DNA from: Alphaproteobacteria bacterium
GTDB lineage: Bacteria; Pseudomonadota; Alphaproteobacteria; RF32; CAG-239
Direction: 5' to 3'
Assembly: GCA_015062305.1 (NCBI GenBank)
Contig: SUUX01000001.1
Coordinates: forward strand, 485 to 64,484
Length of the DNA stretch: 64,000 nucleotides
A program made the position numbers and the translations under genes. The notes below the pieces were generated by a model. It ran no database searches. It saw nothing but the letters and a program-made list of their open reading frames with translations, and had not been told where the DNA came from. The first letter of the stretch is position 1. The number at the start of each line of letters is the position of its first letter. Shown here piece after piece: positions 6,030 to 50,121 of the stretch.

Positions 6030-6911
6030 ATGAAGCAAAACTATTCTGATTTGGCGCAGAGATTAATGTTGGATTTTCAAAAAGATGAGGCTACAAGTGC
6101 TTTGATCTATGCTCATTTTGCCAGAAAGATGAAAAATCAGAAAGAACATGATAAAATTATGCAGATTTCTCATGACGAGGCAGCTCACGCCGCTATTTGG
6201 AAATCTTATACCAAACAAGATGTGAAACCAAATATCTTGAAAATTTGGTGGTATAGATTTTTGATGATGGTATTGGGTTATACTTTTGTGATAAAATCTC
6301 TGGAATTGCATGAATATGAAGGTGTTAACGGCTTGAAATTGCTGGAAAAGGAGATTCCGGAGGTCAAAAAAATTATCGCCGATGAGCTCAAACATGAAAA
6401 GCAATTGATTGAAATGCTTGATGAAGACAGGTTGAATTATGTGGGAGCGATGGTGTTGGGACTTAATGATGCTCTGGTGGAATTGACCGGTACAATTGCA
6501 GGTTTGACATTTGTATTGATGAATACAACCTTAATTGCTATGGCCGGTATTATTACAGGAATTGCAGCTACATTGTCGATGGCTGCTTCTAATTATTTGG
6601 CAGAAAGAGCCGATGGAAATCCAAATGCGTTGAAAGCTAGTTTTTATACCGGAATTGCTTATTTGGTAACGGTGGTGTTTTTGGTGTTGCCTTATTTGTT
6701 GTTTCCTCAAAATATGTTTGTGCCGGCACTGATTTGTATGATTGCAATTGTGGTGTTTTTGGTGTTTATATTCAATTTTTATATTGCAGTGGTTAAATCA
6801 GAGAGCTTTTGGCCGAAGTTTTTGGAGATGGCTACAATTAGTTTGTCGGTGGCTTTGATATCGTTTTTGATTGGCTTGGGCGCAAAAATGTGCTTTGGGA
6901 TAGAAGTATAG
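6030..6911 (+). CDS. mbfA: membrane-bound ferritin-like / VIT1-CCC1 family iron transporter (MbfA-like)
   Basis: N-terminal ferritin/erythrin-like region (EATSALIYAHFA..HDEAAHAAIW..ELKHE) is fused to a C-terminal VIT1/CCC1 membrane domain (GLNDALVELTG, MAASNYLAE). Confidence 0.7.
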   Translation: MKQNYSDLAQRLMLDFQKDEATSALIYAHFARKMKNQKEHDKIMQISHDEAAHAAIWKSYTKQDVKPNILKIWWYRFLMMVLGYTFVIKSLELHEYEGVNGLKLLEKEIPEVKKIIADELKHEKQLIEMLDEDRLNYVGAMVLGLNDALVELTGTIAGLTFVLMNTTLIAMAGIITGIAATLSMAASNYLAERADGNPNALKASFYTGIAYLVTVVFLVLPYLLFPQNMFVPALICMIAIVVFLVFIFNFYIAVVKSESFWPKFLEMATISLSVALISFLIGLGAKMCFGIEV

Positions 6912-6999
6912 GCTCTGGATATCTGAATATTTGAGTTTTAGATTTCGGAAACTTTACGCTATGATGCTAATATTAGTGAAATAAAAGGAGAATTTCTAA

Positions 7000-8112
7000 A
7001 TGAAGTTGATGGTGGTGAAAGATCGTAATGTTAGCAGTCGCTTTGTGTGGGATTTTTGCAATATGTTGGCAAAACGAGGACATGAGGTGAATTTTGTGTT
7101 TGATAGTTTTAAGCAACAATCTGGACCGGCTAATTTGTTGCCTCAGGTGAAAGTGCAAAATTTGAGCGCAAAATGCGGAAATCTGATGAAAGATATTTGG
7201 ACAGGTGCAAAAAGTGTGTTTATGCCGGCTTCTTTTAGATATGCAAAAGCTATTAAGCAGATTAAACCAGATGCGATTGTGTGTTATTTTTTGAAAGATG
7301 TTTATAATATTTGCTTTTTGCATAATCATAATGTTCCAATTGTGCTGATGGTGCATAATCATCCTCCGGTGTTCTTTGCTCCGTTACGCAAAAAGCCTAT
7401 CAGATATAGAGTGTATAAAAAACAATTGGAAAAAATTGCAGCATATGATTTGTTGCTGGAAAGTTTTAGAGGAACAATCGGAGATGATTATCCGAAACAT
7501 GAGGAACGTATTATCGGAAATATTATTGCCCAAATACCTCCGGCAGAAAGAGCTGATTTAAATAATGAAAAAAAGAAAATTGTTTATGTGTGCCGGGTGG
7601 ATGAAACACAAAAACGCCAACATTTGTTGTTTGAGGCTTTTGGGAAAATTGCTAAAGATTTTCCAGATTGGAAAATTGAATTGTATGGTAGTATAAAGCA
7701 TCCAGACTATCATAAACGATTGTTGGAGCAATTAAAGCAGTTGAAGATTGAAAAACAGGTTGAGTTTATGGGCTATGCAGATGATGTGAAAGCTGTATAT
7801 CGTGGTGCTGATTTTATGGCATGGCCAGCAGCCTATGAAGGTTTGAGTATTGCTTTGGCAGATGGGCAAGCTCATGGGTTGCCAGCTATTGGTTTTGCAG
7901 ATGCCCCATCTGTGAATGAGGTGATTGTTGATGGTGTAAATGGATTTTTGGCCAAAGATGTTGATGATTTTGCAGTGAAAATGGCAAAATTGATGAGTGA
8001 TAAAAATTTGCGAATTAAAATGGGGGCAGAGGCTGCTAAAGGAGTTGAGCAATATGCTGAGCAACATATAGCTGATAAATGGGAAAAGCTTTTGCATGAT
8101 TTGCAAAAGTAA
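7000..8112 (+). CDS. glycosyltransferase family 4 (GT4)
   Basis: C-terminal GT4 core: AWPAAYEGLSIALADGQAHGLPAIGFADAPSVNEVIVDGVNGFL (E-x7-E region). Confidence 0.7.
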   Translation: MKLMVVKDRNVSSRFVWDFCNMLAKRGHEVNFVFDSFKQQSGPANLLPQVKVQNLSAKCGNLMKDIWTGAKSVFMPASFRYAKAIKQIKPDAIVCYFLKDVYNICFLHNHNVPIVLMVHNHPPVFFAPLRKKPIRYRVYKKQLEKIAAYDLLLESFRGTIGDDYPKHEERIIGNIIAQIPPAERADLNNEKKKIVYVCRVDETQKRQHLLFEAFGKIAKDFPDWKIELYGSIKHPDYHKRLLEQLKQLKIEKQVEFMGYADDVKAVYRGADFMAWPAAYEGLSIALADGQAHGLPAIGFADAPSVNEVIVDGVNGFLAKDVDDFAVKMAKLMSDKNLRIKMGAEAAKGVEQYAEQHIADKWEKLLHDLQK

Positions 8113-8122
8113 TATTATAAAA

Positions 8123-8156
8123 AGAGCCGCAGTCTGTAACGACGGCGGCTTTTTTG
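8123..8156 (+). terminator. rho-independent terminator
   Basis: agccgc...ggcggct stem followed by tttttt. Confidence 0.55.
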
Positions 8157-8163
8157 AAAACAA

Positions 8164-8382
8164 TTATTGCCATTGCGGAGGAAATTCTCGAAGTAGTTTA
8201 AGTGCTTTATCTTTGTTGCACCAACAAACCTCAGTTATTCTGTCCGATATGACACGAGCAGCTCCGTATAATTTTTTTGCCTCAAAATAGTAAACAAATG
8301 TTTTTGAGGCTTTGCATACTACCCTTGATGAGTTTTGATCAATATGACAAGCAATGTCTGTCAGTTCTAAAACGGCTTTCAT
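8164..8382 (-). CDS. hypothetical small protein (downstream gene of a coupled pair)
   Basis: 72 aa. Its start ATG overlaps the stop of the upstream ORF in an ATGA arrangement. Confidence 0.3.
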   Translation of the reverse strand: MKAVLELTDIACHIDQNSSRVVCKASKTFVYYFEAKKLYGAARVISDRITEVCWCNKDKALKLLREFPPQWQ

Positions 8383-8567
8383 TGCAACATCTTGTGGCAG
8401 TTTTTTTGGCGGGACGGTACTACCCGGAAAGTTCCATCAGCATAACGAACTAGCAAATACTGTTCTGAATTGTCTTTGACAATAGCAAATGATAAAAATT
8501 TCTCCATAACAAATACAAAATTATAAAAGTGAAGAGGTGAATATAGAAAAATTTTTGTAAAAGTCAA
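8379..8567 (-). CDS. hypothetical small protein (upstream gene of a coupled pair)
   Basis: 62 aa, or 42 aa if translated from MEKFL. The ATGA stop/start overlap suggests translational coupling. Confidence 0.3.
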   Translation of the reverse strand: MTFTKIFLYSPLHFYNFVFVMEKFLSFAIVKDNSEQYLLVRYADGTFRVVPSRQKNCHKMLQ

Positions 8568-8578
8568 ACAAATAAAAT

Positions 8579-8610
8579 AAAACTCTGCATATTTTTTTAT
8601 GCAGAGTTTT
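8579..8610. terminator. bidirectional hairpin terminator downstream of recA
   Basis: Perfect palindrome aactctgcata ttttttt atgcagagtt. Confidence 0.6.
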
Positions 8611-8631
8611 ATTGGACGTTAAGATTGTTTT

Positions 8632-9660
8632 TTATTCGTCAGAAGCCGGTGAATTATCTCCGATTAGTTCACTTGCCAGATGTCCGGCATCGGCTTTGAT
8701 TTTATTTTCTATTTCCAGAGCTAAATCTGGATGTTCTCTTAGAAAGATTTTGGCATTTTCTCTGCCTTGTCCTAGTTTATCTCCATTGTAGGCAAACCAA
8801 GCACCAGATTTTTCGATAACATTTGCTTTGACGCCAAGATCGATAATTTCTCCGGTTTTAGATATGCCCTCTCCATACATAATGTCAAAGTCAATAACTT
8901 TGAACGGAGGAGCTACTTTGTTTTTGACAATTTTGACTCTGGTCTGGCTACCAATGATATCTTCTTTGTCTTTGATTTTTCCGATGCTGCGAATATCTAT
9001 ACGCACAGAAGCATAGAATTTGAGAGCATTGCCGCCTGTGGTGGTTTCTGGATTGCCAAACATTACGCCGATTTTCATGCGAATTTGGTTGATGAAGATA
9101 ACCAAAGTGTTAGAACGAGCAATGGTGGAGGTTAGTTTGCGTAGAGCTTGGCTCATTAGGCGAGCTTGCAACCCCATGTGAGAATCTCCCATTTCTCCTT
9201 CTAATTCAGCCTTAGGAACAAGGGCAGCCACAGAATCTACTACCAAAACATCAATTGCTCCGGAGCGAACTAATGTATCGGTAATTTCCAGAGCTTGTTC
9301 TCCGGCATCTGGCTGAGAAATAAGAAGATTTTCTATATCTACGCCAATTTTTTTGGCATAAGATGGGTCAAGAGCATGTTCGGCATCTATAAATGCACAG
9401 GTTCCGCCTTTTTTTTGGGCTTGGGCAATAACACTAAGCGCTAAGGTTGTTTTACCAGAACTTTCGGGGCCATATATTTCTATGATACGACCACGAGGGA
9501 GTCCTCCGATGCCTAAAGCCATATCAAGGCCAAGAGAACCTGTGGGTATTGCCTCAATATCGACATGGGCATTGTCTTGTCCTAATCTCATAATCGAACC
9601 CTTGCCAAAGGCTTTCTCAATTTGGCTGAGGGCGGCGTCTAGCGCTTTATCTTTGTCCAT
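8632..9660 (-). CDS. recA: recombinase RecA
   Basis: Walker [14 protein letters not shown]2 loop and conserved RecA core throughout. Confidence 0.95.
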
Positions 9661-40887: not shown

Positions 40888-40963
40888 GGGCGCTTAGCTC
40901 AGCTGGAAGAGCATCTCGTTTACACCGAGAGGGTCGGGAGTTCGAACCTCTCAGCGCCCACCA
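40888..40963 (+). tRNA. tRNA-Val (anticodon UAC)
   Basis: GGGCGCT...AGCGCCCACCA acceptor, D-arm AGCTCAGCTGGAAGAGC, anticodon loop TTTACAC, T-loop GGTTCGAACC. Confidence 0.9.
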
Positions 40964-40969
40964 ATTAGA
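40914..40969 (+). repeat. attL core: 3' part of tRNA-Val plus 6 bp, duplicated at attR
   Basis: A 56 bp stretch (tctcgtttacacc...ccaattaga) recurs exactly at 46826..46881. Confidence 0.8.
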
Positions 40970-41010: not shown

Positions 41011-41029
41011 AAATTTTATGTAAAATAAA

Positions 41030-41051
41030 ATAGCTAACAAATAGCTAACAG
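41030..41051 (+). repeat. tandem 11-bp repeat ATAGCTAACAA/ATAGCTAACAG (island left end)
   Basis: The same tandem pair recurs at 46670..46691 near the int promoter. Confidence 0.6.
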
Positions 41052-41321: not shown

Positions 41322-41822
41322 ATGAAAAAAAGTTTGTTAGTGCTATTATGTTGTTTTTTATCATCATGTAGCTTAGAAAGCCGGATTAATTGGGCTAAGT
41401 ACTCTATAAATGTTGAGCGAGATACATTTAAGAAAACATTATTGGTTTGCACGGATGAGTATAAAACAGATGATTATATTAATGGAAGAAGTCCGGCAAC
41501 TTATGCTTTTTGCTATTATGAAGATAAAAACAATAAACATATTTATTCTATTACTGGAAAATATGTTTTACATCAACCTTTACCTATTGAATTTAATGAA
41601 GCTATTGATAAAAATGGCAATCAATTAAAAATAAAATCCACAGATGATAGGCGTTTAGGTGCTACAATAAATAATTTTGCAGTTCAGATTGAAGATAAAT
41701 ATATTGAAAATGTGACTGAAAGTATAGATGTTAGAATTTATGGTAAATACTCTTATACGTTACATATTCCTTATATTGATATTTTGGCATTAAAAGAAAA
41801 AATTAAAGAGGAAAATTTATAA
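41322..41822 (+). CDS. hypothetical lipoprotein (island cargo)
   Basis: AGGAG RBS. Signal peptide with lipobox CFLSSC. No family recognised. Confidence 0.45.
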   Translation: MKKSLLVLLCCFLSSCSLESRINWAKYSINVERDTFKKTLLVCTDEYKTDDYINGRSPATYAFCYYEDKNNKHIYSITGKYVLHQPLPIEFNEAIDKNGNQLKIKSTDDRRLGATINNFAVQIEDKYIENVTESIDVRIYGKYSYTLHIPYIDILALKEKIKEENL

Positions 41823-41963: not shown

Positions 41964-42788
41964 TTATCTTGAACACTGTTCTACTATGTTCAAGTATTTT
42001 TTTGAACATTTTGAATAAAAAACTTTAACACGTTGAATTAGATTTTGACTTATAAATAATAAAGTTAAAGCTTCATCTTGATTTTTTGTTATATATTCAA
42101 ACCATCCAGTTGGAGATGAAATGTTTTCAAATTTTATAATATTCTTATTCATTGGATGTTGTTTATGTTTTTTATTAAAAGCAATTTCTTTGAATATTTT
42201 TTTTAATGTTTTTATTTTTTGTGCGTTAAAATTTATAATTCCATGTATATGAAATAAATGTAAGTTATCTTTTATTGTGGTAGTTTTATCAAACTCAATA
42301 ACAAATAACCATTGAGGGTTGCAGTTAAATACATATTTATATTTATTTCTAAAACTCTCGCTAATATAATTGGTTAGTGTTTTAGAGGATTTATAGGCGT
42401 TATAAATATATTTGGTGGAAAATCTTAGTGTAAAGGCAATAAATTCATTAGCAGGAGCAAAACGTAATATGCACATTAGTTTATCAGATTTGTTAAGATT
42501 TCTCCATAATGGTAATTTATTATAATTATATATATTACTAACTGAAGAAGGATTATCAAAAACAACCTTATGAATACAGTTAGTGATTTGATAACTATGA
42601 GTTCTTACATCATTTGTCATTATATGAATTTTTGGTTTTTTTGCGAGTGTTTTACAAAAAAAATTACTTGATGTTTCATTTTCGTTATGTATTATGGTTT
42701 TAGATGATTTATGAAAGTTGTCTATTTCTAAGGCTTGCTGTTGGTGCAAAACAAAGCAAGCCTTTTCTTTTATTGTTCTTTTATACAT
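41964..42788 (-). CDS. putative rolling-circle/HUH-type replication initiator (Rep-like)
   Basis: HUH-like motif LHLFHIHGII and a YxxK-type motif (EYITK) about 40 aa downstream. Positioned after alpA, as in satellite/PICI replication modules. Confidence 0.35.
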   Translation of the reverse strand: MYKRTIKEKACFVLHQQQALEIDNFHKSSKTIIHNENETSSNFFCKTLAKKPKIHIMTNDVRTHSYQITNCIHKVVFDNPSSVSNIYNYNKLPLWRNLNKSDKLMCILRFAPANEFIAFTLRFSTKYIYNAYKSSKTLTNYISESFRNKYKYVFNCNPQWLFVIEFDKTTTIKDNLHLFHIHGIINFNAQKIKTLKKIFKEIAFNKKHKQHPMNKNIIKFENISSPTGWFEYITKNQDEALTLLFISQNLIQRVKVFYSKCSKKYLNIVEQCSR

Positions 42789-43008
42789 ATTTTACAACCT
42801 CGCAACTATTAGAAATGGCTGTTGATATGCGAGAAATTGCCCATTCTTGTAATTCTTTTTCATCATATACAACTGTTTTATATCCAAACTTATGATATTT
42901 AGGACCACCGCCAGTGGTAGCGTACTTACCAAGAGTTTTAGGACTTATTGTTAATCCAAATGTTGTCTTTAAGAAAATACAGGCTTCAGGTCTTGTGTAA
43001 TATTTCAT
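42781..43008 (-). CDS. AlpA-family phage regulatory protein / excisionase-like
   Basis: YTRPEACIFLKTTFGLTISPKTLGKYATTGGGPKYHKFG..VVYDEKELQEW fits the AlpA HTH pattern. Confidence 0.55.
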   Translation of the reverse strand: MKYYTRPEACIFLKTTFGLTISPKTLGKYATTGGGPKYHKFGYKTVVYDEKELQEWAISRISTAISNSCEVVKYV

Positions 43009-43101: not shown

Positions 43102-43860
43102 TTATTTTTCGTACGCTTTTTCTTTTTTATTATGATAATGTCGATAATCTGCAGATAAATGTCTACATCTATCATTACAGTATTTTTTATTACTTCTATA
43201 TAAGAAAAATTTATTACAACTATGACGTTCACATTGTTTTAAAATATGATTGTTTTCTAAATGTTTAAAAAATGTTTCGATAATGTTTAATAGTAAATGT
43301 TTACTTAAAGTGTCTTTTCTTGATGCCAAAATTTTTTGTATTTTAGGAAACAATGTATTTGCTGTTTTATCTTGGGGTTTAGACGAGTTTAAAATGTCAT
43401 TAAATATTTTTCCTAATTTTCCAATAGATATTGCTAATCCTATTGAGTAACTTCCATCAATAGCTTGATATTTAAGTAAATTATAAATTTGCTTATCAAG
43501 AGTATTAATTATTTCTCCCATTATTTGAATATTTTTAAAATTTGTTAGTAATTGACATATAAAAAAATAGGGAAAAATGTTATTTTCGTTTTGTATTCTA
43601 AATTTTAGATAATAGGAACGTTCTCTTTTAGTGTAGTCATCAGGAAAAAAACTTTTTTCTTCATCTGCATTAAAATTTTTAGATAATGAACATTTTATTG
43701 GATGTTTAACATAAGACATTGTCACAAACTCTAGAGTAACATTATATTTTATATTATTTTCATCTAACATTTCTGCAGATACAATATCCTTAAAAAGATA
43801 TATTCGGTTTGTATCTTGTTTTATAAGGTGGTTTTTTTTGTAAGCAACTATGTCATTCAT
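43102..43860 (-). CDS. hypothetical protein with C-terminal CGNR-type zinc-finger-like motif
   Basis: C-terminus CERHSCNKFFLYRSNKKYCNDRCRHLSADYRH resembles zf-CGNR (C..C..F.D.S.....WCS..CGNR). N-terminal 200 aa unassigned. Confidence 0.35.
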   Translation of the reverse strand: MNDIVAYKKNHLIKQDTNRIYLFKDIVSAEMLDENNIKYNVTLEFVTMSYVKHPIKCSLSKNFNADEEKSFFPDDYTKRERSYYLKFRIQNENNIFPYFFICQLLTNFKNIQIMGEIINTLDKQIYNLLKYQAIDGSYSIGLAISIGKLGKIFNDILNSSKPQDKTANTLFPKIQKILASRKDTLSKHLLLNIIETFFKHLENNHILKQCERHSCNKFFLYRSNKKYCNDRCRHLSADYRHYHNKKEKAYEK

Positions 43861-43862
43861 GA

Positions 43863-45371
43863 TTATCTCTTTGAATGCGTTTTTTTACAGTTTGGGGTAA
43901 ATGATAATTTTGCATATTGATAATTAATGGTGTTGCAAATAACATCTTTAATTCCTGTAGCATATCGTAAATCAGCGCCTTTGATGTCGGCATTGGTTAA
44001 AATTGCATTTGAAAAGTTGCTACATCTAAAATCTGCATTTTGTAAGTTTGCATTGGTAAAATTAGAATTGCTAAAATTAATATTAGAAGCTTGTATTTTT
44101 TTCAAATTACCATTTATAAATCGTTTATTAGTGTATTTACTTATTTGTTCTTTTTCGCAAATTCCACTCCATGTATTAAAAGAAATATTCTCAAGTGTTA
44201 TATTGCTTAGATGATAATTAGAAAAGTATATTGTGATAATAACAATATATATTGGTAAAATGGAATTCATTTTTGTTTTTTGGGGTATAAAGTGATATGA
44301 TAAAACACTTGTCACAACAATAAATAAGCTTAACATCCAAGTGGGTTTGTTAAATGATAAGAGTTTTGTTATGTTTGTACCAATATTGTTTATATCAATA
44401 AAAGTAGCTAAGGCTAATATTAACAATATTGAGGTTATAGGATGTATAGTATTTCCTGAGTGATTTATTTTGAATATAAAGAATACACCTAAAATCATTT
44501 GAAGTTCGTTTTCACTTAAATTTAAAAATGCAATATCAAAAAAGTATATGTGTAATATTCTGCTTAAGAATAGATATAAACAAATAAAGTCTAAGAATCG
44601 AAATAAAGCTATAGTGTGATTAGTTATTTCATTATAATCCAATTTTAAATTTTTATCCATATTTTGACTTTTGATATTACTAATTGGAAGTAATCCTTTA
44701 AAGTCTATTTGAAGTTCAGTTATCCATCTTAATAAAAAATACTTACTTAAAACGGTTGAAATTCTTTCACCATCTGGAAATATTACGGGTAAAGTTCTTA
44801 TCATTGCCATTATTTCGAGAGTTAATGGTATTAAAAATTTATCTAAGGCAAATACTATTATAATTCCAAAACATAAAAATGTTGTATAAGATACCATTCC
44901 TGTTAAATCAAAGAATGGATTTGGAATATTTATTTTTGTTCCTAAGAAAAAATCAGAATATGAGGCACTTAGTGCAAATAATATGTAGTAAATACAAATG
45001 ATACAGTAGAGAAGTGAGATTATTTTGTATTTTGAACTATGGTCGTTAATATATTCTATTTTTTGAGAATAAGAAAAAGGTAGTTTTGTTCCGTATAAAT
45101 TTGAAAAGCCAAAAGCATTAATACTAAGGTATTGAGCATTAATAAAATTACATTTTTGGATAATTGAATTTTCAAATTTTGTATTTGTGAGGTCACAGTT
45201 AGAAAAATCACAATTTTCAAATATACTATTATTTAAGTTCATATTAGATAAACAATCTTTTGTAAAAGAGCAATTTACTAATTTTAATTGTTTTCCAGTA
45301 ATGTTATTTGTAAGCCAATCAGAATGATTCTTATATAACTTTTCAAATTCTTTTTTGTTTATTTTTTTCAT
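43863..45371 (-). CDS. pentapeptide-repeat / polytopic membrane / pentapeptide-repeat protein
   Basis: N-terminal pentapeptide repeats (NCSFTKDCLSNMNLNNSIFENCDFSNCDLTNTKFENS), about 8 TM helices, then C-terminal repeats (ASNINFSNSNFTNANLQNADFRCSNFSNAILTNADIKGADL). Very AT-rich. Confidence 0.55.
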   Translation of the reverse strand: MKKINKKEFEKLYKNHSDWLTNNITGKQLKLVNCSFTKDCLSNMNLNNSIFENCDFSNCDLTNTKFENSIIQKCNFINAQYLSINAFGFSNLYGTKLPFSYSQKIEYINDHSSKYKIISLLYCIICIYYILFALSASYSDFFLGTKINIPNPFFDLTGMVSYTTFLCFGIIIVFALDKFLIPLTLEIMAMIRTLPVIFPDGERISTVLSKYFLLRWITELQIDFKGLLPISNIKSQNMDKNLKLDYNEITNHTIALFRFLDFICLYLFLSRILHIYFFDIAFLNLSENELQMILGVFFIFKINHSGNTIHPITSILLILALATFIDINNIGTNITKLLSFNKPTWMLSLFIVVTSVLSYHFIPQKTKMNSILPIYIVIITIYFSNYHLSNITLENISFNTWSGICEKEQISKYTNKRFINGNLKKIQASNINFSNSNFTNANLQNADFRCSNFSNAILTNADIKGADLRYATGIKDVICNTINYQYAKLSFTPNCKKTHSKR

Positions 45372-45375
45372 TTTA

Positions 45376-46635
45376 TTAAACCTCTAAAGCTTCTGCGATT
45401 TTTTTTGATATGGCATCGGCGGCATAAACTAGGCTTGCATCAACACTGTGACTGTAGCGGTTAGTTACGCCACCAAGTTTATGACCTAATAGTCCGGCAA
45501 TGGTTAATTCATTATAATTCATATCAGCGCCGACGCTTGCAAAACTATGTCTTAATGTGTGAAGGCATATATCTTTACTAATAAAGGGTGTTTTTTCTTG
45601 TTCTGGATGTTCATTTTTATAATCGGTAGGCAAACGATATATTTTATTAAAGATTTTTAATAAGCTAATAAGGTGTCCTGAGCCTCTAGTTGCCGGAAAT
45701 ACCCAATCATAATTATTATTTTGTTCTTTTATTTCTTCTAATAGTTTTTTTGCAGAGTATCCAAAAGGTCTTATTTGCGCTCCTGTTTTGGTGTCAGGAA
45801 AACGAAAACACTGATTTTTAAAGTCTACATAATCCCATTTGAGAGTTAATATCTCATTTTTTCTACAACCTGTTAATATTAAAAGTTTTAAGGCATTTAT
45901 AGCGGTGGTGCTACATAAATGCAATTCTTCAGCCGCTGTCAATGCCTTTCCAAATAATTTAATTTCATCAATAGTTAAAAATTCTTCTCTTTTGTTAGTT
46001 TTAGGCTTTTTTATTCCTAAAGCAGGATTCTCATTAATATAACCTCTTAATTTTGCAAAGGATAAAATACTACTGAGCATTTCAAGCGTACGCTTAGCAA
46101 TAGATTTTCCACCTTTTACATTTATAACACCTCTTTTTTTTGAGCTTTTAGCTATATATGCTGTGTCACCTTTAATAATAGATAATACCATTTTATCTAT
46201 ATGTTCTTTTTGTAGTTCTTTAACCGCCATGTTTCCTATTAATGGCTTAATATGGCGTTCTATTCTGCTTCTATCGTTTATTATAGTTGAATTTTTTTTA
46301 TTGTAAGTTGCTTCATCCATATAAATTTCGCATAGTTCAGTTATAGTAATAGCTTTTTTATTACCTGTTTTTTCTAATGCAGGGTCACCATGATTTAAGG
46401 TTATATCTGCTAATGTTTTTTGAGCTTTTTCTCTTGCCTGTTCAGGAGTTATTTTTCCAACTTTTCCTAATGTAAACATTTTTTGTTTACCAAATTGGTT
46501 TCTATACATAATTACCCAAGATTTACTTTTGGGTTGAATTCGTATACCAAAACCTTTTAAACTATCATCCCAAAATGTCTTTCCTATGTCTTTTTCTGTT
46601 ATTTTATCTATAAAACTTTTGTTTATTTTTACCAT
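45376..46635 (-). CDS. tyrosine-type site-specific integrase (P4-like, N-terminal arm-binding DUF4102-like)
   Basis: N-terminus ...KGFGIRIQPKSKSWVIMYR.. and C-terminal catalytic HTLRHSFAS...LLGHKLGGVTNRYSH (R..H..R..Y). Confidence 0.9.
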   Translation of the reverse strand: MVKINKSFIDKITEKDIGKTFWDDSLKGFGIRIQPKSKSWVIMYRNQFGKQKMFTLGKVGKITPEQAREKAQKTLADITLNHGDPALEKTGNKKAITITELCEIYMDEATYNKKNSTIINDRSRIERHIKPLIGNMAVKELQKEHIDKMVLSIIKGDTAYIAKSSKKRGVINVKGGKSIAKRTLEMLSSILSFAKLRGYINENPALGIKKPKTNKREEFLTIDEIKLFGKALTAAEELHLCSTTAINALKLLILTGCRKNEILTLKWDYVDFKNQCFRFPDTKTGAQIRPFGYSAKKLLEEIKEQNNNYDWVFPATRGSGHLISLLKIFNKIYRLPTDYKNEHPEQEKTPFISKDICLHTLRHSFASVGADMNYNELTIAGLLGHKLGGVTNRYSHSVDASLVYAADAISKKIAEALEV

Positions 46636-46669
46636 AATACTAGTGTTTCCAATGCTTGTAGATTAAAAA

Positions 46670-46691
46670 ATAGCTAACAAATAGCTAACAA
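46670..46691 (+). repeat. tandem 11-bp repeat ATAGCTAACAA x2 (island right end, 35 bp upstream of int start)
   Basis: Matches the tandem pair at 41030..41051. Confidence 0.6.
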
Positions 46692-46825: not shown

Positions 46826-46881
46826 TCTCGTTTACACCGAGAGGGTCGGGAGTTCGAACCTCTCAGCGCCCACCAATTAGA
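46826..46881 (+). repeat. attR: 56 bp direct repeat of the tRNA-Val 3' end
   Basis: Exact copy of 40914..40969. Confidence 0.8.
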
Positions 46882-46882
46882 T

Positions 46883-46917
46883 AGAGTTTCGAATGATATT
46901 CGGAACTCTTTTTTTTT
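46883..46917 (+). terminator. displaced native tRNA-Val terminator
   Basis: agagtttcg aatgatatt cggaactct stem followed by ttttttttt. Confidence 0.55.
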
Positions 46918-47022
46918 ATGATTTTTTTGTTCGAACTCCCGGGAAGGGAGTTTGGGCTGAACTTTTAGGCAGACGGGAGTATGCCGGTGGCAAAGCCAAA
47001 AAGTGAAGCAGGCGAAGCCAGC

Positions 47023-47042
47023 CTCTCAGCGCCCACCAATTA
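47023..47042 (+). repeat. second partial att copy (20 bp of tRNA-Val 3' end)
   Basis: ctctcagcgcccaccaatta. Confidence 0.6.
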
Positions 47043-47082: not shown

Positions 47083-47106
47083 TTGATATGGGACTTGAGT
47101 AGCCTG

Positions 47107-47160
47107 TTCAGCGCTCACCAATTAAATAGAATTTCAGATGATATTCGGAACTCTTTTTTT
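47107..47160 (+). repeat. third, degenerate copy of att 3' end plus terminator
   Basis: ttcagcgctcaccaattaaatagaatttcagatgatattcggaactcttttttt is a diverged duplicate of 46863..46917. Confidence 0.55.
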
Positions 47161-47293
47161 TGCATAATATATACATTTTATCAGATTTTTGAGTTCTTGA
47201 AAAAGATATGAATGTTTATTACTTATTTTTTATATACTTTTGTAACTTGAACTAATCTTTGTACTATGTGTGAAAACAAGGATTGGAGTTGCT

Positions 47294-48249: not shown

Positions 48250-48395
48250 AGTAATTGTGTTTTTTTGTTAATAATAAAATTTTGTCACATATTATGTCTA
48301 ATAAAATAAAATGTCAAGATATAAGTCGTTTGTAGTTGATAATGAAAAAAATGTATGTTATCTTGAATTAGATTTGTTTTTTGGGGAGAAAAAAT

Positions 48396-48644
48396 ATGGA
48401 AACTAAAGTTGCTGTCATCGCTATTATCGTAGAAAATAGAGATTCTGCTGAAAGTTTGAATGCAATTTTGAGTGAATATGGTGAATATATCATAGGGCGC
48501 ATGGGGATTCCATATAAGGCTAAAAAAATTAATATTATCAGTGTGGTTGTGGATGCACCGCATGATGTGATTAGTGCTATGGCCGGAAAAATCGGAAATT
48601 TGCAAGATGTTACTGTTAAAACGGCTTATTCCGGTTGCAATTAA
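48396..48644 (+). CDS. TM1266-family small protein (putative [FeFe]-hydrogenase system regulator)
   Basis: VAVIAIIVENRDSAESLNAILSEYGEYIIGRMGIPY...VISAMAGKIGNLQDVTVKT fits the TM1266 pattern. GGGGAG RBS. Confidence 0.6.
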   Translation: METKVAVIAIIVENRDSAESLNAILSEYGEYIIGRMGIPYKAKKINIISVVVDAPHDVISAMAGKIGNLQDVTVKTAYSGCN

Positions 48645-48693
48645 TTAAATATATTTAACTGACGGGAAAGAGTAATCTGACCCAAAAGATGAG

Positions 48694-50121
48694 GTGGAAA
48701 TGGTTTATGATGTTAAATCGGCCAAGGCCGAAGAATTTATTTGTCATGAAGAAATTTTGGACAGTTTGGCTTATGCAGAGGCTAATAAAGGAAATCTGCA
48801 ATTAATTGATGAAATATTAGAAAAAGCAAGGCAGCGCAAAGGATTGTTGCATCGAGAGGCATTGCTTTTGCTTGATTGTGAAGATGAAGAAAGAAATCAG
48901 CAAATTTTTGCTTTGGCAGAACAGATAAAAAAAGATTTTTATGGCAATAGAATTGTGTTGTTTGCACCGTTGTATTTGTCTAATTATTGCGTGAATGGTT
49001 GCGTTTATTGCCCGTATCATGCTAAGAATAAGAGAATCTTTCGAAAAAAAATGACTCAGGGCGAGATTCGACAAGAAGTGATTGCTCTGCAAGATATGGG
49101 TCATAAGAGATTGGCTCTGGAGGCCGGTGAGGATCCGGTTAATAATCCGATAGAGTATATTTTGGAATCTATCAAAACTATTTATTCCATTCAGCACAAA
49201 AATGGTGCAATTAGGCGAGTTAATGTAAATATTGCAGCAACAACAGTTGATAATTATCGCAAATTGAAAGATGCCGGAATTGGAACTTATATTTTGTTTC
49301 AAGAGACATATAATAAAGAATCTTATGAAAAATTGCATCCGACTGGTCCTAAGCATAATTATGCGTGGCATACAGAGGCTATGGATAGGGCTATGGAAGG
49401 TGGAATTGATGATGTGGGCTTGGGTGTGCTTTATGGTTTGGAATCTTATAGATATGAATTTGTGGGACAATTGATGCATGCCGAACATTTGGAAGCTGTG
49501 CATGGGGTGGGGCCACATACAATCAGTGTGCCAAGAATAAAGAGGGCAGATGATATTGATCCGGATAGTTTTGATAATGGAATAGATGATGATACTTTTG
49601 CAAAGATTATTGCTTGCATTAGAATTGCTGTGCCTTATACCGGAATGATTATTTCTACAAGAGAATCTCCAAAAGTTAGAGAAAGAGCCTTGCATTTAGG
49701 AGTGTCGCAAATTAGTGGAGCTTCTAAGACAAGTGTGGGCGGATATGCACATCCGGAATCGGAAGACGAAAATTCGGCCCAGTTTGATGTGAGCGATAAC
49801 AGAACTTTGGATGAAATCATCTATTGGTTGATGAAAATGGGGTATGTACCCAGTTTTTGTACGGCTTGTTATCGAGAGGGGCGTACAGGTGATAGGTTTA
49901 TGGAGCTTTGCAAAGCAAAGCAAATTCAAAACTGTTGTCATCCCAATGCATTGATGACACTGAAGGAATATTTGACAGACTATGCTTCTGAGGCAACCAA
50001 AGAGCTGGGACAGGCATTAATACAGTCAGAATTGGGTAATGTTCCGCAAGAAAAAGTGCGCGAGATTGTACAAAAGCATTTGATAGAAATAGAAAAAGGC
50101 AAAAGGGATTTCTATTTTTAA
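48694..50121 (+). CDS. hydG: [FeFe]-hydrogenase H-cluster radical SAM maturase HydG (tyrosine lyase)
   Basis: Radical SAM CVNGCVYC (CX3CX2C) and ThiH-like core. HydG-specific C-terminal CTACYREGRTGDRFMELCKAKQIQNCC (CX2CX~22C auxiliary cluster motif), which ThiH lacks. Confidence 0.75.
   Translation: MEMVYDVKSAKAEEFICHEEILDSLAYAEANKGNLQLIDEILEKARQRKGLLHREALLLLDCEDEERNQQIFALAEQIKKDFYGNRIVLFAPLYLSNYCVNGCVYCPYHAKNKRIFRKKMTQGEIRQEVIALQDMGHKRLALEAGEDPVNNPIEYILESIKTIYSIQHKNGAIRRVNVNIAATTVDNYRKLKDAGIGTYILFQETYNKESYEKLHPTGPKHNYAWHTEAMDRAMEGGIDDVGLGVLYGLESYRYEFVGQLMHAEHLEAVHGVGPHTISVPRIKRADDIDPDSFDNGIDDDTFAKIIACIRIAVPYTGMIISTRESPKVRERALHLGVSQISGASKTSVGGYAHPESEDENSAQFDVSDNRTLDEIIYWLMKMGYVPSFCTACYREGRTGDRFMELCKAKQIQNCCHPNALMTLKEYLTDYASEATKELGQALIQSELGNVPQEKVREIVQKHLIEIEKGKRDFYF

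Follow-up and report, generated by a model that had tools for sequence, protein, structure and literature searches.

We analysed a 64,000-nucleotide stretch of DNA (the window; contig SUUX01000001.1, assembly GCA_015062305.1) from an Alphaproteobacteria bacterium, in which a 5.9-kb integrative element sits in a tRNA-Val gene between two direct repeats, attL and attR. Next to the integrase gene, the element carries an open reading frame (ORF) for a 502-aa protein, whose two pentapeptide-repeat protein (PRP) domains flank a membrane core. We compared the window with related loci (labelled L001, L003-L013, L020, L021, and L030) and with individual proteins (P0010 and P0013). On the basis of this comparison, we regard the 502-aa protein, the product of a rare stand-alone cargo gene of the element, as a candidate for a phage-defence effector encoded by a single gene. 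The cargo gene and its neighbours lie as follows:

45376-46635, minus strand: tyrosine integrase (int), 419 aa (Phage_integrase 61.7 bits; Arm-DNA-bind_3 51.6 bits; phrog_1 integrase, E = 1.7e-63)
43863-45371, minus strand: ORF of the 502-aa PRP/membrane core/PRP protein, a single-gene cargo
43102-43860, minus strand: 252-aa element backbone protein (directly after int in L008 and L009; a 63% identical homologue in L001)
42781-43008, minus strand: 75-aa AlpA/excisionase-like helix-turn-helix (HTH) protein, with sub-threshold matches (HTH_17 17.6 bits, cut-off 27; Phage_AlpA 15.6 bits, cut-off 21)

The genes are tightly packed, with 4 nt between int and the 502-aa gene and 2 nt between the 502-aa and 252-aa genes. 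The 502-aa gene is unusually AT-rich, with a GC content of 24.5% against about 37% (24% in windows at 43-45 kb, about 36-40% in the surroundings). Every family locus shows the same pattern, the gene having a GC content of 25-28% (36% for the distant P0013), well under that of the surrounding loci (34-40%). The ratio of nonsynonymous to synonymous divergence (dN/dS) indicates purifying selection on both genes (502-aa gene, 0.12-0.18; 252-aa gene, 0.16-0.31); the two ORFs are therefore real genes, as the initial annotation described them, and not AT-rich chance ORFs. Within the 502-aa gene, dN/dS is 0.07-0.26 for the N-terminal PRP domain, the core, and the C-terminal PRP domain alike, wherever dS is unsaturated. 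Promoter and terminator scans of the locus stayed at shuffle level, and the sole match of an Rfam scan was the tRNA.

The 502-aa protein is divided into three regions:

45078-45371, minus strand: N-terminal capping helix and about 14 pentapeptide repeats (aa 1-98; Pfam Pentapeptide_4 and LD_SV2; predicted local distance difference test [pLDDT] 79-87)
44172-45077, minus strand: orphan polytopic membrane core (aa 99-400), with six robust and two marginal transmembrane (TM) helices and no Pfam family
43866-44171, minus strand: C-terminal domain of about 12 pentapeptide repeats (aa 401-502; best Pfam Pentapeptide stretch 436-469; pLDDT 80-91)

The pentapeptide repeats proposed earlier for both termini are borne out. 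Pfam Pentapeptide (PF00805) matched at 58.4 bits (cut-off 20.2), with stretches at residues ~20-85 and 413-475, and Pentapeptide_4 (PF13599) matched at 56.6 bits (cut-off 38), placing the protein, with its tandem pentapeptides of the A(D/N)LXX type, in the PRP family; LD_SV2 matched at 33.1 bits (cut-off 29). AlphaFold2 (AF2) modelling from a 7-sequence alignment gave pLDDT values of 80-91 and the short-strand periodicity of a beta-solenoid at both ends (residues 1-95 and 400-495). The periodic short strands at residues 30-95 and 415-475 are those of a right-handed quadrilateral beta-helix, and each PRP domain comprises about three coils. A Foldseek search against the PDB returned PRP structures exclusively, with weak E-values of 2e-3 or worse, and no HalA, the PRP-bearing effector of the Hailong system discussed below. 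The PDB sequence matches were likewise all PRP proteins. Searches of PHROG, phages, and plasmids with the 502-aa protein gave no matches beyond the PRP ends; with tblastn, the sole phage match was the N-terminal PRP region, and plasmids yielded no matches. The N-terminal cap helix and repeats share 38% identity over 98 aa with gp043 of Staphylococcus phage SEP9. The SEP9 protein (L021 3001-3720) is a soluble PRP of 239 aa with the same N-terminal 'HxxWL' cap helix, and this PRP subtype circulates in phages. Two JGI matches (L012 and L013) are unrelated soluble PRPs.

The 502-aa protein shares bona fide PRP right-handed beta-helices with the soluble PRPs MfpA, Qnr, AlbG, Rfr, HetL, and SEP9 gp043. 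Those proteins are single-domain and soluble, whereas the 502-aa protein carries a short PRP module on either side of an orphan membrane core. MfpA, QnrB1, and AlbG are among the best sequence and structure matches of the PRP domains, which would suit a membrane-anchored protector of the Qnr/McbG/AlbG type, with PRP DNA mimics shielding gyrase or topoisomerase and the core exporting or excluding a toxin. However, the scores lie far under the cut-offs (Qnr 33.8 bits vs 240; MfpA 28 vs 360), and the Qnr/MfpA solenoid is longer than the three-coil domains found here, with about eight coils. DNA-mimic PRPs are acidic, whereas the PRP domains of the close family are basic (isoelectric point [pI] 9-9.7); those of P0013 are acidic. 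No toxin biosynthesis genes lie nearby, and a protector of this type is highly improbable.

Analysis of the membrane core revealed the invariant motifs IPNPFF, PLT, and LPxxFxxG and the invariant residues E186, R192, R271, and H274, together with conserved polar and charged residues inside the core. The Kyte-Doolittle hydropathy averaged over the family has seven peaks. A Hessa-scale scan of six homologues resolved robust TM segments at residues 112-140, 156-182, 250-280, 307-330, 341-364, and 368-392, and marginal ones at 178-200 and 286-306. The core that the initial annotation called 8-TM is thus polytopic as claimed, but eight helices are an upper estimate. With six helices, the K/R-rich juxtamembrane N-terminus, the loops 181-253 and 328-344, and the C-terminus share one side of the membrane. 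Since this number of TM helices is even, both short PRP beta-helices would lie on the cytoplasmic face, and we infer from the sequence an N-in, C-in topology in the inner membrane with both PRP domains in the cytoplasm. In the AF2 model, core residues 100-392 have pLDDT values below 50, and the fold comparison is therefore meaningful for the PRP ends alone.

A profile of residues 95-410 searched against 1.84 billion representatives retrieved the family itself and P0013 (E = 9e-11) and nothing else. Alignment with hhalign supported P0013 as a distant relative (98% probability), and a word-indexed search with P0013 added gave no new family members. Pfam searches of seven core sequences at E-values up to 10 returned no family apart from 2CompART (18 bits vs a cut-off of 27, in 2 of the 7 members), which we rejected as spurious, the match partly overlapping a TM segment. 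The 700-aa protein P0010, which has a PRP-TM-PRP arrangement and a common LPxIFxNG motif, was rejected as a homologue (hhalign probability 1.3%). The PRP/polytopic core/PRP architecture matches no characterised family, in agreement with the earlier assessment.

To place the cargo gene in its genomic context, we compared the window with the related loci and distinguished four states and one unit of insertion or deletion:

State a (the window, at least 22 near-identical contigs, and L001): full element with both the 502-aa and 252-aa genes
State b (L008 and L009): element at 87-94% nucleotide identity, with the 502-aa ORF exactly absent and the order int-252aa-AlpA-274aa-lipoprotein
State c (L003, L004, L005, and L011): decayed tRNA-Val islet with a 502-aa gene 83% identical at the amino acid level, followed by an att remnant and tRNA-Val
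State d (L006, L007/L020, L010, and L030): 502-aa gene alone in unrelated neighbourhoods, with similarity stopping at the ORF borders
43840-45360: cargo insertion/deletion unit, present in the window and L001 and exactly absent from L008 and L009

In L008 and L009, the int stop codon overlaps the ATG of the 252-aa gene. Alignment with blastn showed that window positions 46879-45361 and 43839-41076 are collinear with L008 3140-4655 and 4666-7432, and the junction sequences agree. The 502-aa gene is a separate one-ORF cargo, inserted precisely after the stop codon of int and before the start codon of the 252-aa gene. In L003, L004, L005, and L011, a 55-bp remnant of the int 3' end precedes the 502-aa gene, a host membrane protein gene of normal GC content lies upstream, and no int, 252-aa, AlpA, or Rep genes were found. 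Between the cargo and tRNA-Val of L004 (5100-5414) lie ~120 bp of GC-rich sequence, flanked by a duplicated unit of terminator and att core.

The initial annotation had treated the 502-aa and 252-aa proteins as a pair. An obligate two-gene sensor-effector module for abortive infection would be in keeping with genes that are adjacent, co-directional, and 2 nt apart, and that are both present in every contig of this lineage and in L001. Such a module is nevertheless very unlikely, given that L008 and L009 lack the 502-aa gene and have the 252-aa gene directly after int, that the 502-aa gene has no 252-aa homologue beside it in L004, L011, L007, L010, and L030 (at least three other contexts), and that the two genes differ in phylogenetic affinity. 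This two-way separation identifies the 252-aa protein as backbone of the element, not a partner of the 502-aa protein, and the 502-aa gene as one-ORF cargo.

The comparison also revealed that the element is a recent recombinant mosaic. The window int is closest to that of L001 (91% aa identity, dS 0.39, compared with dS 0.71 to L008), whereas the rest of the backbone is closest to L008 (88-100% aa identity, dS 0.02-0.32), which places a recombination breakpoint at the cargo. The lipoprotein encoded at 41322-41822 is 100% identical to that at L008 6683-7183 (dS 0.02). The window cargo gene itself is closest to the L004 copy.

The 502-aa family forms eight 90% clusters in an index of 5.8 billion proteins. 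It is very rare and under purifying selection, and it retains a foreign GC content while moving as a bare ORF among mobile or defence loci. In L006, the family gene lies 42 nt downstream of, and on the same strand as, a gene for a 363-aa Xre-peptidase that matches PADLOC PD-Lambda-2_B (E = 4e-30). The Xre-peptidase gene is itself preceded by an ORF of 107 aa that resembles HigB below the threshold (15.5 bits vs 27), and a type IV Mrr enzyme is encoded upstream, beside the PD-lambda-2-like A/B pair (region 6521-9488). The L006 family member occupies the C slot and has no PADLOC PD-Lambda-2_C match. PD-lambda-2 is an experimentally validated defence system of three genes, which encode a HigB-like protein (A), an Xre-peptidase (B), and a component required for defence (C); PD-lambda-2C is described as related to a P4 antitoxin (Vassallo et al. 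2022, PMC9519451). The likeness is one of position, the L006 member standing in the slot of the third, defence-essential component after the HigB-like ORF and the Xre-peptidase. It differs in that C is antitoxin-related and not a PRP membrane protein, in that the window copy has no such neighbours, and in that a single contig is concerned.

In L007/L020, the gene has a UmuC fragment (C-terminal in L007) on one side and DUF5677 on the other, with a type I restriction-modification (R-M) locus beyond; in L007, the block on the DUF5677 side also includes a phosphatase gene. In L010, the gene for the distant homologue P0013 follows a RhuM gene that matches the PADLOC candidate PDC-S05, and a Redoxin gene is also a neighbour; in L030, the family gene precedes a DUF3768 gene. 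Among the loci compared, no homologue of the 502-aa protein was found in a housekeeping context. The homologues are rare and occur solely in mobile or defence-type neighbourhoods, which is the opposite of the broad, unlinked housekeeping distribution that would have spoken against the defence proposal of the initial annotation.

These neighbourhoods also bear on whom the cargo serves. The 502-aa protein may act for the element itself, for example by excluding superinfecting competitor elements, by tethering the excised replicon to the membrane, or by post-segregational addiction, and not protect the host from phage. Its gene is transcriptionally nested in the int operon by the 4-nt and 2-nt gaps, it lies at the recombination breakpoint of the mosaic element, and its other contexts are likewise mobile DNA (DUF3768, RhuM, and UmuC). 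However, an intact and selected copy persists in the decayed islet, where int, Rep, and the rest of the element are missing, and in L006 and L007 the available sequence shows the gene surrounded by host-type defence genes and contains no element backbone. We consider such an element-selfish role unlikely.

A non-conflict accessory function is similarly doubtful. The protein would then be a channel, transporter, or signalling protein carried as niche-adaptive cargo, with its PRP domains in a regulatory or scaffolding role, a comparable case being the MFS transporter SV2, whose luminal domain is a PRP. The LD_SV2 match above its cut-off, the conserved polar and charged residues of the core, the Redoxin neighbour in L010, and the origin of all sources in gut or rumen-type metagenomes point in this direction. 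Against it, the core is unlike any transporter or channel family searched (Pfam; 1.84 billion representatives), and the gene, of foreign GC content, has an extremely scattered and sparse distribution and is recurrently associated with R-M, PD-lambda-2-like, and RhuM genes.

Among known systems, the closest analogue of the 502-aa protein is HalA, although the protein is not a member of the Hailong system. We took the architecture of HalA from PMC13434031 and PMC13586616, which describe Hailong (Tan et al. 2025). According to these sources, HalA combines pentapeptide repeats with an IRK channel domain and is found in P4 hotspots (PMC13586616), and it depolarises the membrane once a phage nuclease destroys its inhibitory oligo-dA ligand (PMC13586616; PMC13434031). 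As described there, both are membrane proteins with a cytoplasmic PRP domain (predicted for the 502-aa protein), carried as cargo in the integrase-proximal hotspot of an integrated element. The differences are substantial. The NCBIfam model of HalA (NF051894) matched at 29 bits against a cut-off of 250, over positions 66-123 of 338 and in the N-terminal PRP domain only. The 502-aa protein has no IRK or Ion_trans match (Pfam at E-values up to 10, 7 core sequences), and it differs further in its 6-8 TM helices, its additional PRP domain, and its length (502 aa against a 338-position model). No nucleotidyltransferase neighbour equivalent to HalB was found in the window, L004, L006, L007, L010, or L030.

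On this basis, we propose that the 502-aa protein is a self-contained conflict effector, acting by abortive infection or exclusion, whose membrane core is under the control of ligand-sensing PRP domains in the cytoplasm. The ligand would be a nucleic acid or protein associated with infection, and its binding to the PRP domains would control the core, which may leak ions or otherwise disrupt the membrane; abortive infection or exclusion would be the outcome. Such a mechanism would be analogous to that of the PRP-plus-channel effector HalA, but the membrane domain would differ and a HalB-type partner would be absent. We put the probability of this reading at roughly 45%, somewhat below even odds, with the defence function deduced from gene context. 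A more specific version, which we regard as improbable, makes the 502-aa protein a single-polypeptide counterpart of Hailong. Its two cytoplasmic PRP half-solenoids would stack or clamp a ligand (nucleic acid or phage protein) and gate a six-helix membrane pore of a kind not seen before, giving one-gene abortive infection; the bare ORF would hop between int-proximal hotspots and toxin-antitoxin or R-M islands, and it could replace the third component of a PD-lambda-2-like system.

Several points weigh against the proposed conflict effector. PADLOC, Pfam, NCBIfam, and PHROGs returned nothing beyond PRP for the 502-aa protein; the PADLOC check that the initial annotation had called for gave no match for either this or the 252-aa protein. 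The evidence from context is qualitative and comes from about six independent neighbourhoods, and the PD-lambda-2-like adjacency was observed on a single contig that ends 124 bp past the gene. The 502-aa gene follows int after a gap of only 4 nt, which leaves its expression in the integrated state uncertain. The TM count and topology derive from crude hydropathy scales, and channel or pore activity is pure inference, as the core has no usable model. In addition, the charge of the PRP domains is not conserved, which weakens any specific ligand model.

The novelty of this locus lies in a very rare protein family that has not been described before and in the new membrane core of its members; the wider themes, membrane effectors that bear PRP domains and the turnover of cargo next to int, are known. 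If the defence function is true, PRP-gated membrane effectors would extend beyond Hailong HalA to a new example with a different membrane fold and no nucleotidyltransferase partner, and the PRP domain would be a reusable sensor or gating module. The practical impact is modest for now, the family being extremely rare (eight clusters) and the host uncultured.

The 252-aa backbone protein is probably a Zn-ribbon nucleic-acid-binding regulator of the element itself. Residues C210, C215, C228, and C232, encoded at 43165-43233, are invariant among three homologues, the most divergent of which is 63% identical, and they are predicted to act as zinc ligands. The last 52 aa matched zf-CGNR (PF11706) at 16.9 bits (E = 0.0055; gathering score 24) over model positions 2-42 of 44, and the scores were lower for the full protein (12.7 bits) and the L001 homologue (14.0 bits), all under the threshold. 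The CGNR-type Cys4 motif named by the initial annotation therefore stands in its four conserved C-terminal cysteines, while the family match is sub-threshold. AF2 modelling from two sequences gave a mean pLDDT of 47.6 and an unusable model. Direct searches placed the protein in two clusters, with the 63% identical copy added from L001. PDB profile searches with the 252-aa and 274-aa backbone proteins gave no significant match, and scans of genome, metagenome, and viral collections with either protein found nothing.

The remaining features of the element are as follows:

40888-40963, plus strand: tRNA-Val(TAC), the integration target (ARAGORN; Rfam tRNA 64.9 bits)
40914-40969: attL, a 56-bp direct repeat over the 3' part of tRNA-Val, 100% identical to attR at a spacing of 5912 bp
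41027-41050: 24-bp repeat AAAATAGCTAACAAATAGCTAACA just inside attL, with a second copy at 46667-46690 (both 100% conserved in L001 and L008)
41322-41822, plus strand: backbone gene for a 166-aa lipoprotein-like product (MKKSLLVLLCCFLSSC...; longest ORF from 41205; called as 166 or 205 aa in sister contigs)
41964-42788, minus strand: backbone gene for a 274-aa protein with rolling-circle Rep-like motifs (AFTLRFS, FHIHGII, and WFEYITK, invariant in three homologues)
46826-46881: attR, the second copy of the 56-bp tRNA-Val direct repeat

The gene order is attR, int, the 502-aa gene, the 252-aa gene, the AlpA-like HTH gene, the 274-aa gene, the lipoprotein gene on the opposite strand, and attL within the tRNA. 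Integration is supported by the tyrosine integrase, the perfect 56-bp repeats, and a variant state at the same tRNA, namely the decayed islet of L004; an unoccupied attB was not observed among the relatives compared. The 274-aa protein gave no Pfam, PHROG, or PDB match. Its motifs look like motifs 1-3 of HUH rolling-circle Rep proteins, suggesting that the element may replicate by rolling circle after excision. The repeat AAAATAGCTAACAAATAGCTAACA, itself a tandem 11-mer located inside both element ends, is a candidate arm-type binding site of the integrase. Outside attR, partial copies of the att core with the following terminator-like sequence occur at 47022-47042 and 47104-47161 (and 46863-46916), and these extra copies look like scars of earlier or tandem integrations into tRNA-Val.

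The locus would also document a minimal 5.9-kb integrative element, assembled around genes for an integrase and a Rep-like protein, from Alphaproteobacteria of the gut or rumen that are uncultured. The initial annotation placed it among P4-like satellites, and the shared features are tRNA integration with a tyrosine integrase, an AlpA-type HTH, and variable cargo beside int. The P4 core genes include int, alpA, the alpha primase gene, psu, delta, and sid, plus one more. Of these, int alone passed in the element; the AlpA match is sub-threshold, the remaining ORFs have no Pfam or PHROG match, and no primase, psu, delta, or sid was detected. By the published definition, a P4-like element has seven core genes with at most one missing (PMC13586616). 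The element also differs in its size of 5.9 kb, its HUH-motif Rep-like gene, and its host, an alphaproteobacterium and not an enterobacterium. 'P4-like satellite' is accordingly an analogy, not a classification. The int-alpA interval had been equated with the P4 hotspot, whereas the published hotspot extends from int to psu-delta-sid, and decayed copies that keep their cargo have been described (PMC13586616). The more general claim that the cargo occupies the integrase-proximal variable position of a tRNA-integrated mobile element holds. The swapping of int-proximal cargo and the decayed copy that keeps its cargo are the same dynamics as described for P4/P2 in enterobacteria.

In the window as a whole (1-64000), the GC skew is strongly and near-uniformly positive, with a rising cumulative skew, compared with ~0-0.1 inside the element, and the element genes run against the dominant gene orientation. 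Beyond the element and unrelated to it, positions 48381-50121 on the plus strand encode a TM1266-like small protein followed by a 475-aa radical-SAM/BATS protein of the ThiH/HydG type. In the sister contigs, the radical-SAM/BATS gene is closely followed by the gene for a very large PcfJ-domain protein.

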